This document shows, in pieces, positions 1 to 60,790 of a stretch of 64,000 nucleotides of DNA. Below the pieces are notes generated by a model that worked only from the letters and a program-made list of their open reading frames with translations, was not told the DNA's origin and ran no database searches. A program made the position numbers and the translations under genes. This stretch comes from Escherichia coli (GTDB lineage Bacteria; Pseudomonadota; Gammaproteobacteria; Enterobacterales; Enterobacteriaceae): NCBI RefSeq assembly GCF_013122565.1, contig NZ_CP053258.1, one strand, 5' to 3'. Every line of letters starts with the position of its first letter. Position 1 is the first letter of the stretch.

Positions 1-286
1 TAACGAGATTGAAGATGTCGTCATGCAGCATCCTGGCGTACAAGAAGTCGCGGCTGTTGGCGTACCTTCCGGCTCCAGTGGTGAAGCGGTAAAAATCTTT
101 GTAGTGAAAAAAGATCCATCGCTTACCGAAGAGTCACTGGTGACTTTTTGCCGCCGTCAGCTCACGGGCTACAAAGTACCGAAGCTGGTGGAGTTTCGTG
201 ATGAGTTACCGAAATCTAACGTCGGAAAAATTTTGCGACGAGAATTACGTGACGAAGCGCGCGGCAAAGTGGACAATAAAGCCTGA
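1..286 (+). CDS. fadD: Long-chain-fatty-acid--CoA ligase, C-terminal end (5-prime truncated by window edge)
   Basis: Open frame from window start; C-terminus ...[20 protein letters not shown] typical of acyl-CoA synthetase; followed by rnd as in E. coli. Confidence 0.85.
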
Positions 287-304
287 GCGTTAAGTCAGTC
301 GTCA

Positions 305-331
305 GACGCCGGTTAATCCGGCGTTTTTTTT
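305..331 (+). terminator. Intrinsic terminator after fadD
   Basis: GC stem acgccgg/ccggcgt with 5-nt loop followed by T8 run. Confidence 0.6.
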
Positions 332-1536: not shown

Positions 1537-2016
1537 CTACAAATCCAACACCAGGCGTTTACCCTTCGCACGCGAACAACAGATCAACATACTTTGCTGG
1601 CTGGCACGCTCTTCATCGCTAAAATACTGATCCCGATGGTCAGCTTCACCTTCCAGTATTGCCGTTTCGCAGGTTCCGCATACCCCTTCACGACATAAAC
1701 ATTCCACTTTCGCGGCTTTATTATTTTCAATAACCTGCAAAATAGTCATCTCTTCCGGCACCACAAACTCTTTTCCGGAACGGGCAAGCACCAGGGTAAA
1801 TGCATCGCCGGTTTTGTCTTCGATAGCAAATTGCTCAAAGTGCAGCGTATCGGCGGCGATGTCCAGACGCGCAGCTTCACTTCTTACCGCTTCAATTAGC
1901 GCCTCGGGGCCACAGGTATAAACGTGTGTGCCAGGTTCGATATCCGCCATTGACATCCTCCACGTCCTGAAGGACGAGGAGGATGTCAATGGCAGGGTAT
2001 GAGTTGTATATTGCAT
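1537..2016 (-). pseudogene. yeaX: 3-prime remnant of yeaX-type oxidoreductase (end of NAD-binding domain plus 2Fe-2S ferredoxin domain); N-terminal two thirds missing
   Basis: 159-aa ORF with CGP motif and CxxGxCGTC...C ferredoxin motif; full-length class is about 320 aa; N-terminus of the ORF is translated palindrome (PLTSSSSFRTWRMSM). Confidence 0.6.
1947..1992. repeat. 46-bp near-perfect palindrome (22-bp arms, 1 mismatch, 2-nt centre)
   Basis: ccattgacatcctccacgtcct-ga-aggacgaggaggatgtcaatgg read directly and checked against its reverse complement. Confidence 0.85.
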
Positions 2017-2184: not shown

Positions 2185-3270
2185 TTAACGCAAAATAATT
2201 TTGCAAATCGCGTCGGCAACCTGTGGCGTGGTGGCACTGCCTTTCATATCCGGTGTTTTCGGCCCGTGAGCAATCACTTCTTCAATCGCTGCCAGAATAC
2301 CGTTATGCGCTTGCTGGAAACGCTCATCGCCATTGCCGAGAAAATCGAGCATCATTGCACCGGCCCAAATTGTGGCGATAGGGTTAGCAATATTTTTCCC
2401 GTAGATATCCGGCGCGGAACCGTGGACAGGCTCGAAGAGCGACGGGAAAGTGCGTTCCGGATTCAGGTTGGCGGATGGGGCAATGCCAATGGTGCCGGTG
2501 CAGGCCGGGCCAAGATCGGAAAGGATATCGCCAAACAAATTGGACGCCACTACCACATCGAAGCGTTCCGGCTGCATCACAAAACGCGCGCAGAGAATAT
2601 CAATATGCTGCTTGTCCCACCGGATCTCCGGATAATTCTCGGCCATTGCTTCCACTCGCTCATCCCAGTACGGCATGCTGATGGCTAAACCGTTCGATTT
2701 AGTGGCAGAAGTTAGTGTCTTACGTGGGCGGCTTTGCGCAAGTTCGAAGGCATAACGCAAAATGCGATCGACACCACGACGCGTAAATACCGATTCCTGA
2801 ATGACGACTTCATGCTCTGTACCTTCATTCACTCTACCGCCGAGCGAGGAATATTCGCCTTCGGTGTTTTCCCTGACCACGTAAAAATCGATGTCGCCAG
2901 GCTGTTTTCCCGCCAGCGGGCAGGGAACGCCAGGAAAGAGACGAACCGGGCGCAGATTGACGTACTGGTCGAATTCACGACGAAATTTCAGCAGCGAACC
3001 CCACAACGAAATATGGTCCGGAACGGTATCCGGCCAGCCGACGGCACCAAAATAGATGGCGTCGAAACGGCTAAGTTGCTCATGCCAGTCGTCCGGCATC
3101 ATTTTACCGTGATGGCTGTAATACTCGCAGCTCGCCCACTCCATTTGCTCAAAACTCAAGGCGAAGCCCCAGCGCTCAGCGGCAGCCTGTAACACGCGAA
3201 TCCCTTCAGGAAGGACTTCTTTGCCAATCCCGTCTCCCGGGATCGCAGCAATACGCATCGTTTTCATCAT
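2185..3270 (-). CDS. dmlA: D-malate / tartrate dehydrogenase (decarboxylating), isocitrate-isopropylmalate DH family
   Basis: 361-aa ORF; divergent from LysR regulator as at K-12 yeaU-yeaT. Confidence 0.9.
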   Translation of the reverse strand: MMKTMRIAAIPGDGIGKEVLPEGIRVLQAAAERWGFALSFEQMEWASCEYYSHHGKMMPDDWHEQLSRFDAIYFGAVGWPDTVPDHISLWGSLLKFRREFDQYVNLRPVRLFPGVPCPLAGKQPGDIDFYVVRENTEGEYSSLGGRVNEGTEHEVVIQESVFTRRGVDRILRYAFELAQSRPRKTLTSATKSNGLAISMPYWDERVEAMAENYPEIRWDKQHIDILCARFVMQPERFDVVVASNLFGDILSDLGPACTGTIGIAPSANLNPERTFPSLFEPVHGSAPDIYGKNIANPIATIWAGAMMLDFLGNGDERFQQAHNGILAAIEEVIAHGPKTPDMKGSATTPQVADAICKIILR

Positions 3271-3372
3271 TGGGTTCTCACTTCCTGACCATCAAAATTG
3301 ACAACATCACCATCCTATAATTGACTGAAAAGGAATTAATCCCCGTAACTGGTGAAACATAAAACACGAATC

Positions 3373-4296
3373 ATGAATAATTTACCGCTGCTGAATGATT
3401 TGCGCGTCTTTATGCTGGTGGCTCGCCGGGCTGGTTTTGCCGCCGTGGCGGAAGAACTGGGCGTTTCACCGGCGTTCGTCAGCAAGCGCATCGCCTTGCT
3501 GGAGCAAACGCTAAACGTGGTGTTGTTACACCGCACCACCCGCCGCGTCACCATTACCGAAGAAGGAGAGCGGATTTATGAATGGGCGCAGCGGATTTTG
3601 CAGGATGTCGGTCAGATGATGGACGAACTTTCTGACGTGCGTCAGGTGCCACAGGGGATGCTGCGTATTATCAGCAGCTTTGGTTTTGGACGACAGGTGG
3701 TGGCTCCGGCGTTATCAGCGCTGGCGAAGGCGTATCCGCAACTGGAATTACGTTTTGATGTGGAAGACCGGCTGGTCGATTTGGTCAATGAAGGTGTCGA
3801 TCTCGATATTCGCATTGGCGATGACATCGCCCCTAATTTAATCGCCCGCAAACTGGCGACCAATTACCGCATTCTCTGCGCGTCGCCGGAATTTATTGCG
3901 CAACATGGCGCGCCGAAACATTTAACCGATCTTTCTGCATTGCCGTGCCTGGTCATTAAAGAGCGCGATCATCCTTTTGGTGTCTGGCAATTACGCAATA
4001 AAGAAGGCCACCATGCGATTAAAGTCACCGGCCCACTGTCGTCTAATCATGGAGAAATTGTCCATCAGTGGTGTCTCGATGGGCAGGGGATTGCTCTGCG
4101 CTCCTGGTGGGATGTTAGCGAAAACATTGCCAGTGGTCATTTAGTGCAAGTGCTACCGGAATATTACCAGCCAGCGAACGTCTGGGCCGTTTATGTTTCA
4201 AGGCTGGCGACGTCAGCGAAAGTGCGGATAACGGTAGAATTTTTACGCCAGTATTTTGCCGAGCACTACCCGAATTTTTCACTGGAGCATGCCTGA
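3373..4296 (+). CDS. dmlR: LysR-family transcriptional regulator
   Basis: 307 aa from MNNLPLLNDLRVF; N-terminal HTH, LysR substrate domain. Confidence 0.9.
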   Translation: MNNLPLLNDLRVFMLVARRAGFAAVAEELGVSPAFVSKRIALLEQTLNVVLLHRTTRRVTITEEGERIYEWAQRILQDVGQMMDELSDVRQVPQGMLRIISSFGFGRQVVAPALSALAKAYPQLELRFDVEDRLVDLVNEGVDLDIRIGDDIAPNLIARKLATNYRILCASPEFIAQHGAPKHLTDLSALPCLVIKERDHPFGVWQLRNKEGHHAIKVTGPLSSNHGEIVHQWCLDGQGIALRSWWDVSENIASGHLVQVLPEYYQPANVWAVYVSRLATSAKVRITVEFLRQYFAEHYPNFSLEHA

Positions 4297-5926: not shown

Positions 5927-6175
5927 ATGGGTATTCTGTCATGGATTATTTTTGGGCTTATTGCCGGTATTCTGGCGAAGTGGATCATGCCAGGTAAAGA
6001 TGGTGGTGGATTCTTTATGACTATCCTGCTGGGAATAGTCGGTGCCGTAGTCGGCGGATGGATCAGCACGCTGTTTGGCTTTGGTAAAGTCGATGGCTTC
6101 AATTTTGGCAGCTTCGTGGTTGCCGTTATTGGTGCGATTGTCGTGCTATTTATCTACAGGAAGATTAAAAGTTAA
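5927..6175 (+). CDS. yeaQ: Transglycosylase-associated (GlsB/YeaQ/YmgE) membrane protein
   Basis: 82 aa, Gly-rich TM helices. Confidence 0.88.
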   Translation: MGILSWIIFGLIAGILAKWIMPGKDGGGFFMTILLGIVGAVVGGWISTLFGFGKVDGFNFGSFVVAVIGAIVVLFIYRKIKS

Positions 6176-6189
6176 CGCGTAAATTGCAC

Positions 6190-6223
6190 AAAGGCTGCAC
6201 ACAGGCAGCCTTTGCTATTTTTT
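6190..6223 (+). terminator. Intrinsic terminator after yeaQ
   Basis: aaaggctgc-acacag-gcagccttt followed by gctatttttt. Confidence 0.55.
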
Positions 6224-6233
6224 AGAGGTGACG

Positions 6234-6308
6234 TTACCACCATCCCAGCTCAGTGCCGAGTACGACAATAATCGCCACACCCATCATAATGATCGTTGTT
6301 TTTTTCAT
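6234..6308 (-). CDS. yoaJ: 24-aa small membrane protein
   Basis: Minus-strand translation MKKTTIIMMGVAIIVVLGTELGWW; below ORF-track length cutoff. Confidence 0.8.
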   Translation of the reverse strand: MKKTTIIMMGVAIIVVLGTELGWW

Positions 6309-6310
6309 CT

Positions 6311-6409
6311 TTATGCTCCCGGGGCAGCATAGCCGCCAATAAAAAACCATGCTAAAAATACGACCGCTGTAATGAAGATTACAACCGGAAAAATAATACC
6401 GATTCGCAT
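6311..6409 (-). CDS. yoaK: 32-aa small membrane protein
   Basis: Minus-strand translation MRIGIIFPVVIFITAVVFLAWFFIGGYAAPGA, immediately upstream of yoaJ. Confidence 0.8.
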   Translation of the reverse strand: MRIGIIFPVVIFITAVVFLAWFFIGGYAAPGA

Positions 6410-6441
6410 GTTATCACCAATCAAAAGGATGTGAATACGCC

Positions 6442-7467
6442 TCAGGAATGTAGCGCTGGATGCGCGACAAAAGGTGTTTTCTGTTTGTGTTTTTTCTCCT
6501 GATACATCGCGATATCGGCAGCATGCAGGGCACTGTCTGCATCGGTTGTTTCAGGATCGACTTCTACTATGCCAAGACTGGCACCAGGATAATACAAATC
6601 AACATCACCTAAGTGATATTCTCCGCGTATTTGCTGCTGAATACGTTCTCGCAGCGACGAAATATCCGCATTCTCGTTGTTCAGTGAAACAACCAAAAAC
6701 TCATCACCGCCGAGACGACCAATAACTTCGCCATTTTGCTGGAGCGTATTAAGGCGCTCGCCAACCTGAATGAGGAACAAATCACCACTATTATGACCAA
6801 AACGATCGTTGATTAATTTGAAGTTATCCAGATCGATAAACGCGATCATTATCTTATGGTTAAGATGCCGGGCGAGGGAAAACAGCGTCGTCAGATTTTC
6901 AAAAATCGCCCGCCGATTCGGTAGCCCGGTTAACGAGTCGGTATACGATTGCGCAATCAGCGCAGCATTGGCTTCGCGCAGCTGTTCAACCAACGCCTCT
7001 TTTTGAATATATTGTGCAATCAGTCCGGCGAATAACTGTAAAACCTGTTCCGCGCGTTCACTCCACTGGCGCTTCTCACTGCTGGCGGCGCAAAGCGTGC
7101 CATAGAATGATCCATCCGGTAAGTGAATTGGCGTGCTCAGAAATGTGGTGATGCCAAGATTGCGTGCCGCAATACAGTCGCCCCAACGGTCAGGGACTTC
7201 ATCGCTGAAAAAGCAGTTTTCATCAATGGCGCGTTTGCATAACGAGTAATCCCACGAGACGGTAAAATTCTCCGGGATGTGCATTTTCTGGCTGTTACGG
7301 GCAAACATAATATGCTGCAGGCGCGCTTCGACATCCACTTTGGTCAGGTAGGTTGATTCCATATCAGTGACCATTTCCAGCATCTCCAGAAGCTGTCGGA
7401 CCAGACTTTCCAGTGACTGTTCTTTGGCAAGGGATTGCGAGACGCGGTCGATGATCTGATCTGACAC
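6442..7467 (-). CDS. dgcP: Diguanylate cyclase (GAF-like N-domain plus GGDEF)
   Basis: GGDEF motif (RLGGDEF); 341 aa from GTG start preceded by ggag. Confidence 0.88.
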   Translation of the reverse strand: MSDQIIDRVSQSLAKEQSLESLVRQLLEMLEMVTDMESTYLTKVDVEARLQHIMFARNSQKMHIPENFTVSWDYSLCKRAIDENCFFSDEVPDRWGDCIAARNLGITTFLSTPIHLPDGSFYGTLCAASSEKRQWSERAEQVLQLFAGLIAQYIQKEALVEQLREANAALIAQSYTDSLTGLPNRRAIFENLTTLFSLARHLNHKIMIAFIDLDNFKLINDRFGHNSGDLFLIQVGERLNTLQQNGEVIGRLGGDEFLVVSLNNENADISSLRERIQQQIRGEYHLGDVDLYYPGASLGIVEVDPETTDADSALHAADIAMYQEKKHKQKTPFVAHPALHS

Positions 7468-10830: not shown

Positions 10831-10999
10831 CGTGGTTTCCTTGCCAAAAAATAATAAGCCTGCTTACTTTACGCTTGCTGCAGGAAGGAAGTAGAAAATC
10901 TTTACGTTTTTTGCATAAAAAATCAGGCGAACTGTCATCAAACTGCCATTTGTGCACGCTAACAATAACGTGAAAACAGCTATCTCCCGGGGGCATGCT

Positions 11000-11104
11000 A
11001 TGAACGATCAAATGTTCGTCGAGACACTGATTATCACGTCATCGTTTTTTGCCATTGCGGTTGTGCTGGTTTTGTCCGTTCTGCTTATTGAACGGACAGG
11101 CTAG
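11000..11104 (+). CDS. yoaI: 34-aa small membrane protein
   Basis: Translation [34 protein letters not shown]; not in ORF track. Confidence 0.7.
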
Positions 11105-30002: not shown

Positions 30003-31964
30003 ATGCGGTTGTTTATTGCCGAAAAACCGAGTCTGGCGCGTGCCATTGCTGATGTCCTGCCCAAACCGCACCGGAAAGGCGATGGCTTTATTGAGTGCGG
30101 TAATGGTCAGGTGGTGACCTGGTGTATCGGTCACCTGCTTGAGCAGGCGCAGCCAGACGCCTACGACAGCCGCTATGCGCGCTGGAATCTTGCGGATTTG
30201 CCGATTGTCCCGGAAAAGTGGCAATTACAGCCCCGACCCTCCGTGACCAAACAACTTAATGTCATCAAACGCTTTTTGCATGAAGCCAGCGAAATCGTTC
30301 ATGCCGGGGACCCGGATCGTGAAGGGCAATTGCTGGTGGATGAAGTGCTGGACTATCTGCAACTGGCACCGGAAAAGCGCCAGCAGGTGCAGCGTTGCTT
30401 GATAAACGACCTGAACCCGCAGGCGGTTGAGCGGGCGATCGACCGTCTTCGTTCCAACAGTGAGTTTGTACCGCTGTGCGTTTCTGCGCTGGCGCGAGCG
30501 CGTGCCGACTGGCTGTACGGCATCAATATGACCCGTGCGTATACCATTCTCGGTCGCAATGCCGGTTATCAGGGCGTACTTTCCGTGGGACGCGTGCAGA
30601 CACCCGTGCTCGGGCTGGTGGTGCGCCGCGATGAAGAGATTGAAAACTTCGTGGCGAAAGACTTCTTTGAAGTCAAAGCACATATCGTGACACCTGCCGA
30701 TGAGCGGTTTACCGCTATCTGGCAACCGAGCGAAGCGTGTGAACCGTACCAGGATGAAGAAGGGCGCTTGTTACATCGTCCACTGGCGGAGCATGTGGTT
30801 AACCGCATTAGTGGTCAACCGGCTATTGTCACCAGCTATAACGATAAACGGGAATCAGAATCCGCGCCGCTGCCTTTTTCGCTTTCGGCGTTGCAGATTG
30901 AAGCGGCAAAACGCTTTGGTCTGAGCGCGCAGAACGTGCTTGATATCTGCCAGAAGCTGTACGAAACGCACAAGCTAATCACTTATCCGCGTTCCGATTG
31001 TCGCTATTTGCCAGAAGAACATTTTGCCGGACGCCACGCGGTGATGAATGCCATCAGCGTTCATGCACCGGGCTTGTTACCGCAGCCGGTGGTAGATCCG
31101 AATATGCGCAACCGCTGTTGGGATGACAAAAAGGTCGATGCGCACCACGCCATCATCCCGACCGCACGGAGTTCTGCGATCAACCTGACGGAGAACGAAG
31201 CGAAGGTCTATAACCTGATTGCCCGTCAGTACTTGATGCAGTTCTGCCCGGATGCGGTCTTCCGCAAGTGTGTTATCGAACTGGACATTGCCAAAGGCAA
31301 ATTTGTCGCTAAAGCCCGTTTTCTTGCTGAAGCAGGCTGGCGCACGCTGTTAGGCAGCAAAGAGCGCGATGAAGAAAACGACGGCACGCCATTGCCTGTG
31401 GTGGCGAAAGGCGATGAGTTGCTGTGTGAAAAAGGTGAAGTGGTAGAGCGGCAAACCCAGCCGCCGCGCCATTTTACCGATGCAACACTGCTTTCGGCGA
31501 TGACCGGGATCGCGCGCTTTGTACAGGACAAAGATCTGAAAAAGATCCTCCGTGCTACCGATGGTCTGGGGACAGAAGCAACGCGTGCCGGGATTATTGA
31601 ACTGCTGTTCAAGCGTGGCTTCCTGACCAAAAAAGGGCGCTATATCCACTCTACCGACGCCGGAAAAGCGTTATTCCATTCGCTGCCGGAGATGGCGACG
31701 CGACCGGACATGACCGCTCACTGGGAATCGGTGCTGACGCAAATCAGCGAAAAGCAGTGTCGCTACCAGGACTTTATGCAGCCGCTGGTGGGGACGCTAT
31801 ATCAGCTTATTGATCAAGCCAAACGTACTCCGGTGCGGCAGTTTCGCGGCATTGTGGCTCCGGGCAGTGGTGGCAGTGCTGATAAGAAAAAGGCTGCAAC
31901 GCGTAAACGTAGTGCGAAAAAAAGTCCGCCAGCAGATGAAGCCGGAAGCGGGGCGATAGCGTAA
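30003..31964 (+). CDS. topB: DNA topoisomerase III
   Basis: 653 aa [20 protein letters not shown], Toprim and topo IA domains. Confidence 0.92.
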
Positions 31965-60574: not shown

Positions 60575-60790
60575 AGATGCGGCGTGAACCTTGCATCCGG
60601 CGATTAATTCCTACAAAGGCGGCGTAACTGCGCCGCTTGAGACTGCTGACAAACGCAAAACTGCCTGATGCGCTTCGCTTATCAGGCCTACGCGTTTCCT
60701 GCAATATATTGAATTTGCACAGTTTTGTAGGCCGGATAAGGCGTTCACGTCGCATCCGGCATAAACAAAGCGCACTATGTAAATCATTTG
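60575..60790. repeat. BIME: cluster of REP units between chbG and katE
   Basis: gcctgatgcgcttcgcttatcaggcctac and tgtaggccggataaggcgttcacgtcgcatccggc. Confidence 0.7.

Follow-up and report, generated by a model that had tools for sequence, protein, structure and literature searches.

The small membrane protein genes yoaK and yoaJ of Escherichia coli form a conserved tandem, and YoaK has relatives in temperate phages

Two adjacent open reading frames on the minus strand between yeaQ and dgcP are the known Escherichia coli genes yoaK and yoaJ, and their reading as real protein-coding genes for short single-helix peptides of the inner membrane is very probably the right overall explanation of the locus. 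They lie in a 64,000-nucleotide stretch of E. coli DNA, referred to here as the window. The locus consists of the following features.

5927-6175, plus strand: yeaQ, encoding a GlsB/YeaQ/YmgE family membrane protein; convergent neighbour and anchor of the comparative scan
6189-6214, no strand assigned: G+C-rich hairpin between the convergent genes yeaQ and yoaJ; shared terminator
6234-6308, minus strand: yoaJ CDS, ATG to TAA, 24 aa plus TAA, MKKTTIIMMGVAIIVVLGTELGWW; one TM helix, N-terminal MKKTT and C-terminal GWW
6299-6305, minus strand: A7 homopolymer directly after the yoaJ ATG; prone to loss of one base
6306-6313, minus strand: junction of yoaK stop and yoaJ start, TAA-AG-ATG, with a 2-nt gap; a translational-coupling arrangement
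6311-6409, minus strand: yoaK CDS, ATG to TAA, 32 aa plus TAA, MRIGIIFPVVIFITAVVFLAWFFIGGYAAPGA; one TM helix and a short GGYAAPGA tail
6316-6320, minus strand: Shine-Dalgarno (SD) sequence GGGAG for yoaJ, within the Pro-Gly-Ala codons of yoaK, 7 nt before the yoaJ ATG
6410-6441, minus strand: spacer of 32 nt from the dgcP stop to the yoaK start
6413-6418, minus strand: SD-like GGTGAT for yoaK, 3 nt before the yoaK ATG
6442-7467, minus strand: dgcP (yeaP), encoding a GAF-GGDEF diguanylate cyclase; upstream gene of the operon, annotated in RefSeq, with its stop codon TGA at 6442-6444

The coordinates, lengths, strand, neighbours and gene identities given for yoaJ and yoaK in the initial annotation were exact when compared with the ORF scan, the NCBIfam models and RefSeq. 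YoaK scored 69.1 bits against NF033821 (cut-off 32), with residues 1-32 of the 32-position profile covered, and YoaJ scored 60.4 bits against the NF011343 equivalog (cut-off 54), with residues 1-24 of 24 covered. These scores, together with the published tagged proteins, bear out the proposed match to experimentally detected small proteins. Pfam PF28021 was assigned to YoaK homologues in precomputed hits. YoaK and YoaJ of the window are 100% identical to the RefSeq proteins WP_001219350.1 and WP_001386836.1 of E. coli PCN033. They show no protein-level difference from those of E. coli K-12, where the yeaQ and dgcP neighbours, the gene order and the strand are also the same. Of 5426 complete E. 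coli genomes, 5418 contain an 801-bp region with yoaK-yoaJ, at 95-99% identity, and in 5402 it is at least 80% covered. The highest identity of the window DNA around the pair to a complete genome of the collection is 99.0%. The initial annotation described the two genes as missed by the ORF track. This is correct for a simple length cut-off but not for the NCBI pipeline, which calls yoaJ, yoaK and yoaI in all full-coverage E. coli records among those listed because dedicated HMMs exist for them. The RefSeq product names are 'protein YoaJ' and 'YoaK family small membrane protein'.

An ORF of 24-32 codons is not significant alone, since 45 ORFs of at least 20 aa overlap a 2-kb stretch around yoaK-yoaJ. 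YeaQ was used as an unbiased anchor, and 80 species loci from species-representative genomes were searched with both peptides (tblastn). In 30 of the 80 loci the tandem was complete, with the two full-length genes side by side and in unchanged order; these loci belong to Escherichia, Citrobacter, Salmonella enterica arizonae, Enterobacter, Leclercia and two MAGs. In Klebsiella, Raoultella, Pantoea, Yersinia, Serratia, Erwinia and others, a search up to 3 kb from yeaQ found neither gene. Loss of the frames in related genomes had been proposed as the observation that would count against the genes, and the frames of both hold. Frame openness was rejected as a coding test, as two non-coding frames, the +2 frame of yoaK and one antisense frame of yoaJ, are also open in every species because of their skewed codon make-up. 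The pattern of selection, not frame openness, is therefore decisive. Over the 30 species, pooled dN/dS against the window copy is 0.026 for yoaK and 0.138 for yoaJ, and synonymous change is near-saturated. Variable sites at codon positions 1, 2 and 3 number 13, 7 and 30 of 31 in yoaK and 14, 9 and 21 of 23 in yoaJ. Both amino-acid sequences are under strong purifying selection. A DgcP orthologue is located upstream of yoaK in 28 of the 30 loci. Salmonella arizonae carries yoaK-yoaJ without dgcP and divergent from yoaF, and C. sedlakii keeps the pair while dgcP is absent, which indicates that the pair is selected for its own sake. A search for a promoter of its own upstream of the Salmonella pair gave no convincing candidate. 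In C. sedlakii NBRC 105722 (locus L013) and in a metagenome contig (L087), the homopolymer after the yoaJ start has six A residues, which puts the yoaJ ATG out of frame.

The arrangement of the genes points to joint expression with dgcP. The operon yeaP-yoaK-yoaJ has been called from RNA-seq data (PMC4620388), and no terminator-like site was predicted between dgcP, yoaK and yoaJ. The hairpin downstream of yoaJ has a stem of 10-11 pairs followed by a T run on the plus strand, and the same hairpin is predicted for the RNA of the minus strand (-21 kcal/mol, z = -2.5). A promoter scan of the locus gave sites no more numerous than in shuffles. A -35/-10-like match overlapping the yoaK start was discarded, being at chance level and not conserved. 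Expression of dgcP is under vegetative control and relatively strong in all growth phases, with a lower level in stationary phase (PMC5635695). This report contradicts the view that dgcP is RpoS-dependent. Both SD sequences are suitably spaced from their start codons. Most Escherichia and Enterobacter loci and several from Citrobacter retain AGGTGAT or GGTGA before yoaK, and the GGTGAT of the window could pair with the 3' end of 16S rRNA, judging from the known anti-SD sequence. The SD of yoaJ is GGGAG or GGGGG in nearly all species loci shown and GGAG in a third, very common lineage. In all species examined, yoaJ starts 0-2 nt after the yoaK stop or overlaps it. The junction varies in form, with TGATG in Citrobacter sp. 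MGH106, TAAATG or TAAGTG in Enterobacter, TAATG in the third lineage and ATGA in locus L088, and the yoaJ start codon is GTG in 8 of the 30 species loci. The geometry is classical, and yoaJ is probably translationally coupled to yoaK.

The description of both products as single-TM peptides is supported by hydropathy and, for YoaK, by an AlphaFold2 helix. The best 15-residue hydropathy windows are 3.10 for YoaK, 2.52 for YoaJ and 3.29 for YoaI, which fits one TM helix each. The AlphaFold2 model of YoaK, made from the family alignment, has a helix at residues 3-25 (mean pLDDT 89.7) followed by a non-helical GYAAPGA tail. Eight residues are invariant in 25 chromosomal and 33 phage sequences of the YoaK family (M1, F7, P8, A15, W21, F22, G26 and Y27), and YoaK of the window carries all of them. 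The seven-residue spacing of P8, A15 and F22 puts them on a single face of the helix and suggests a surface for specific packing. In YoaJ, K3-T4-T5, A12, G18, G22 and W24 are invariant, and W23 is present in 29 of 30 sequences. A lone Arg at position 2 is the basis of the predicted YoaK topology, and some small proteins have been reported to show dual topology. The small proteins were originally detected by Hemm et al. 2008, as cited in PMC4597795. The same source credits Fontaine et al. 2011 with confirming the N-in/C-out topology of YoaJ. It also describes HA-MBP-YoaJ as an integral membrane protein and reports co-precipitation of YoaJ with RseP, an intramembrane protease (PMC4597795). YoaJ and YoaK were both placed among the 'class II' RseP substrates; each was cleaved in vitro, and in vivo the outcome depended on the tag. 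The Hok toxins are likewise degraded by RseP (PMC10470546). Because of this inconsistency between tags, YoaJ and YoaK count only as class II candidates. Immunoblots show a detectable but weak signal for tagged YoaK, which ranks among the more weakly expressed small proteins (10.1101/511675). YoaJ is raised by diamide (PMC12542507). The initial annotation regarded the function of YoaJ, YoaK and YoaI as unknown. A paper of 2022 still lists YoaJ and YoaK as proteins of unknown function (PMC9769844), whereas a role has now been described for YoaI (PMC11429745; PMC12648545).

By analogy with other small membrane proteins, YoaK and YoaJ may be produced together and act in the membrane by binding a larger inner-membrane protein. 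We regard this as quite plausible, if still short of probable. The two peptides would be made from the transcript shared with dgcP, and they would contact their partner through the conserved helix face and through the periplasmic GGYAxPG tail of YoaK. RseP might limit their lifetime. DgcP contains the Pfam domains GAF_2 and GGDEF and no membrane segment. As a soluble GAF-GGDEF protein, it leaves the operon without an obvious membrane partner for the peptides.

A search of 1.84 billion representative proteins with YoaK gave only 25 clusters. The divergent clusters come from prophages, where the gene immediately follows a CI-type or RacR-like repressor gene in the same orientation. A tblastn search of cultured phage genomes found a YoaK-like ORF in the lambdoid phages mEp234, HK106 and mEp506, where it is not annotated, and in a Klebsiella phage, whose annotation wrongly names it 'CI transcriptional regulator'. 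In mEp234, HK106 and mEp506 the homologue has 32 aa and is located between cI and hicA; it maps to the complement of 2543-2641 in mEp234 (EF120460) and to the complement of about 30467-30559 in HK106 (NC_019768). The mEp234 sequence is MRIGIVFPILVFIVAMGFMAWFIIDGYATPSG. In mEp234 it lies upstream of the annotated immunity terminator (Timm), and no other terminator was predicted on this strand. The absence of a predicted terminator before Timm places the YoaK-like ORF in the cI transcript. Scanning IMG/VR with the family alignment gave 89 contigs, and among the best 80 of these 89, 52 had a phage context and 28 were host DNA at provirus edges. In most of the 52 phage contexts the homologue immediately follows a CI-type repressor gene. 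The upstream ORFs (n=46) matched HTH_3 in 40 of 46 cases, Peptidase_S24 in 22 and Phage_CI_repr in 18. They fall into 10 clusters at 50% identity, 7 of which are repressor-like. Seven phage-context contigs have no adjacent repressor. Among the downstream neighbours of the phage genes are a HipA-like gene and HicAB. A single phage lineage has a 39-aa hydrophobic ORF, different from YoaJ, after the yoaK-like gene, and a search for a YoaJ counterpart in phages found none. The 28 provirus-edge contigs have a different layout, namely a DgcP orthologue, then a 33-aa YoaK and then a coupled 24-aa YoaJ, and in the same lineage a P2-like prophage is inserted between yoaF and dgcP.

The phage yoaK-like genes have a dN/dS of 0.115, with 16, 11 and 27 of 28 variable sites at codon positions 1, 2 and 3, which indicates purifying selection. 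Phage YoaK is more diverse than the chromosomal clade (mean identity 0.70 compared with 0.83), and the mean cross-identity between the two is 0.64. Position 23 is F in 24 of 25 chromosomal sequences and I or V in all phage sequences. The prophage copy in E. coli genomes is already named 'YoaK family small membrane protein' by NCBI, so that the link between chromosome and phage is implicit in the databases. A literature search found no paper that discusses it. These data allow a tentative proposal. Temperate phages might harbour the larger and more diverse branch of the YoaK family, in the form of a 32-aa gene that has gone unnoticed in the cI transcript, with the chromosomal pair as a domesticated relative. 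The family would then be a new class of lysogen-expressed membrane peptides acting on a host inner-membrane protein, for example in superinfection exclusion. If true, this would provide a testable function for YoaK, which has been without an assigned role since its detection in 2008. For the partner model, the position of the phage relatives behind a repressor raises the possibility, which we consider somewhat doubtful, that the target of the YoaK family is a membrane protein with a part in phage entry or in the physiology of the lysogen.

A related rival reading concerns the chromosomal genes. YoaK, and with it the chromosomal pair, would be a lysogen-expressed membrane peptide of phage type, made from the repressor transcript and protecting the lysogen, for example by blocking the entry of superinfecting DNA. 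The chromosomal copy would be domesticated, with its activity kept or turned to a host purpose. The homologues directly behind repressors in prophages, cultured phages and IMG/VR contigs are consistent with it, as are the location of the mEp234 ORF in the cI transcript, the purifying selection on the phage copies and the HicAB and HipA-like genes downstream. The position is the same as that of rexAB in lambda. The Qin immunity region encodes DicB, which keeps phages from entering at inner-membrane receptors (10.1101/708461). However, yoaK of the window is chromosomal and belongs to the dgcP operon, and location in a prophage within a repressor transcript was found for the phage homologues only. 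The chromosomal gene is expressed with a housekeeping-type cyclase and not with a repressor. The chromosomal clade is also distinct at position 23 and in its cross-identity to the phage clade, and chromosomal YoaK always occurs together with YoaJ, a protein without a homologue in phages. No PADLOC or PHROGs model was matched, and comparison of the YoaK family with PHROGs, PADLOC and PDB sequences gave only chance-level matches. Together with the seven phage-context contigs that have no neighbouring repressor, these points make a phage-type role of the chromosomal pair unlikely.

The linkage of dgcP, yoaK and yoaJ in Escherichia, Citrobacter, Enterobacter, Leclercia and a further very common lineage, and the published transcription of the operon (PMC4620388), might instead mean that the peptides are diguanylate cyclase accessories that tether or tune DgcP or c-di-GMP signaling at the membrane. 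In one further case a chromosomal phage-like YoaK follows a MASE5-GGDEF cyclase at a distance of 11 nt. This cyclase is unrelated to DgcP, sharing only 32% identity with it across the GGDEF domain. The case points in the same direction, but it is a single example in a region where GGDEF genes lie to either side. The pair persists without dgcP in Salmonella arizonae and C. sedlakii, the more diverse phage branch is linked to repressors and not to cyclases, and DgcP has no membrane segment. An accessory role for the cyclase is therefore distinctly unlikely in our judgement.

Small and very hydrophobic single-helix peptides could also be membrane-damaging toxins of the type I kind, or perturb the bilayer without a specific partner, and RseP, which cleaves YoaK and YoaJ in some assays, also degrades Hok (PMC10470546). 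The locus has no RNA gene in Rfam or RefSeq, the only Rfam hits in the window being sroD and ES036, which are elsewhere, and the opposite strand has one weak promoter-like match at chance level. The genes are co-transcribed with a constitutively expressed cyclase (PMC4620388, PMC5635695), no toxicity of YoaK or YoaJ was reported in the literature examined, and the invariant face-specific residues suggest specific packing over bulk hydrophobicity. Toxicity or partner-free perturbation of the bilayer is thus highly improbable. There is a negligible chance that the ORFs are fortuitous, or that only the act of translation matters (for example for dgcP mRNA stability) and the peptides are functionless: ORFs of 24-32 codons are common by chance, some alternative frames are open in all species and YoaK is among the more weakly expressed small proteins (10.1101/511675), but dN/dS is 0.03 for yoaK and 0.14 for yoaJ with near-saturated synonymous change, the motif is invariant across chromosomal and phage members, the pair is retained without dgcP in Salmonella, and the tagged proteins are detected and membrane-inserted (PMC4597795, PMC10470546, 10.1101/511675).

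A third small gene, yoaI, lies on the other strand of the window.

10932-10949, plus strand: Pho-box-like direct repeat CTGTCATCAAACTGCCAT, 50 nt upstream of yoaI
11000-11104, plus strand: yoaI CDS, 34 aa, annotated in RefSeq; not homologous to YoaK or YoaJ

It had been called similar to the tandem genes. This is true in kind, as YoaI is a small membrane protein, but it belongs to a separate family and matches the NF041475 equivalog over its full length with 79.8 bits (cut-off 45). The repeat was called Pho-box-like by comparison with the Pho-box consensus; it is the sole match in the window, and none was expected in shuffles. Its position is consistent with the published control of yoaI by PhoB. 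YoaI binds and activates the sensor kinase EnvZ and rises under low magnesium (PMC11429745; PMC12648545).

The genes yoaJ, yoaK and yoaI are already known, annotated and experimentally detected, and the finding as first stated adds nothing new. It shows once more that length cut-offs hide real genes. The gain from the comparative analysis is the strong selection on the pair, its constant coupled arrangement and its persistence in Salmonella arizonae without the cyclase. The phage lead turns 'function unknown' into experiments on cultured phages such as mEp234 and HK106, and the YoaK-like ORFs indicate that published phage immunity regions contain unannotated genes.

Compared with known systems, YoaK and YoaJ resemble the type I toxins Hok, Ldr, Ibs and TisB in being short, hydrophobic and single-helix, and some of these toxins are RseP substrates as well. 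Unlike the toxin genes, yoaK and yoaJ are part of an ordinary operon at a locus without a listed antisense RNA. In lambda, rexA and rexB are expressed in the lysogen downstream of the repressor, which is the usual slot for exclusion genes. Phage YoaK occupies the same slot as lambda rexA/rexB, 434 hex and DicB, after cI and before the immunity terminator, and has no sequence similarity to them; the window copy differs from these lysogen-expressed genes in being chromosomal and outside a prophage. HK97 gp15 is reportedly a YebO-like moron with superinfection-exclusion activity. Like YoaK, gp15/YebO is a small enterobacterial membrane family common to the host chromosome and temperate phages, again with no sequence similarity. 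MgrB with PhoQ, AcrZ with AcrB and CydX with cytochrome bd are cases in which a small membrane protein binds a larger membrane protein. YoaK and YoaJ are similar to these three, and to YoaI with EnvZ, in size, in having one TM helix, in their conserved face residues and in stress- or condition-linked expression. They differ from them in sequence and in forming a coupled tandem, and the partners of YoaI, MgrB, AcrZ and CydX are known.

The YoaK family extends into the immunity regions of lambdoid phages. In the cultured phages mEp234, HK106 and mEp506, a 32-aa YoaK-family ORF without annotation lies in the immunity region, flanked by cI and hicA. The homologous ORF of a Klebsiella phage carries the wrong label 'CI transcriptional regulator', and the family is absent from PHROGs. 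Among the best 80 of 89 IMG/VR matches to the YoaK family alignment, 52 contigs had phage context, and 40 of the 46 ORFs scanned upstream of the YoaK homologue in these were similar to helix-turn-helix (HTH) repressors. The phage loci are as follows.

EF120460 (L086), 1562-1660: YoaK-family ORF of phage mEp234
NC_019768 (L084), 2501-2593: YoaK-family ORF of HK106
MK448237 (L085), 2480-2599: YoaK-family ORF
L092-L143: further YoaK-family phage loci

One phage lineage has a second small ORF about 100 nt after the yoaK-like gene. It encodes a hydrophobic peptide of 39 aa, MSDLVIPILITLLIIGLVGIVLRLDKIFFKRRSGRDDFE, with a positive C-terminus, and was found at L085 2705-2824 and at 20 further IMG/VR loci. 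This peptide and YoaJ are unrelated.

A P2-like prophage (Cox, integrase) sits between yoaF and dgcP in an enterobacterial lineage that is very common and encodes a YoaK of 33 aa (L171 and L172, 1-2200), which is why the provirus calls in IMG/VR terminate precisely at the stop codon of yoaK.

Seven A residues directly follow the yoaJ ATG (window 6299-6305). Two unrelated assemblies have six here, so that their ATG no longer shares the reading frame of the conserved YoaJ body. These versions could reflect sequencing error, a pseudogene or phase variation.

L013 (Citrobacter sedlakii), 3376-3390: A6 version after the yoaJ ATG
L087 (metagenome contig), 3230-3334: A6 version after the yoaJ ATG

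Frameshift fusions were also seen at the G run in the Pro-Gly codons of yoaK, for example P0002, a 57-aa YoaK-YoaJ fusion. A sigma-70-like match (TTCACA, 16 nt, TG-TAACAT; window 6408-6435, minus strand) has a -10 element that overlaps the start codon of yoaK. Transcription from this site would yield an RNA with yoaJ but without a translatable yoaK; the match was rejected, being not above chance in shuffled sequence and not conserved beyond Escherichia.

Elsewhere in the window, a Pho-box-like direct repeat, CTGTCATCAAACTGCCAT (10932-10949), lies 50 nt 5' of yoaI; no other such match occurs in the window, and shuffled sequence is expected to give none. Compared with most complete E. coli genomes, about 3.4 kb is absent at 1950-1991, comprising the 5' part of yeaX and the whole of yeaW (carnitine monooxygenase) and yeaV. 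In its place stand 42 nt between rnd and dmlA, and the yeaX remnant is an ORF of 159 codons (1537-2016, minus strand). Over the 801-bp and 12-kb stretches compared, the identity of the window to the complete E. coli genomes of the collection reached at most 99.0%. The window therefore comes from a lineage absent from that collection, possibly Shigella or an E. coli clade that has not been sampled. Rfam placed two small RNAs.

245-330, plus strand: sroD small RNA (115 bits)
60684-60726, minus strand: ES036/CssrF small RNA (52.8 bits)

At locus L089 (1883-3135), a phage-like YoaK, MKIGVLFPIAIIVAAIVFITWFIVGGYATQAS, is encoded 11 nt downstream of a MASE5-GGDEF cyclase, and a second GGDEF gene lies downstream in convergent orientation. 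The MASE5-GGDEF cyclase is unrelated to DgcP except in the GGDEF domain, and this locus could represent a second, independent link between the YoaK family and diguanylate cyclases.
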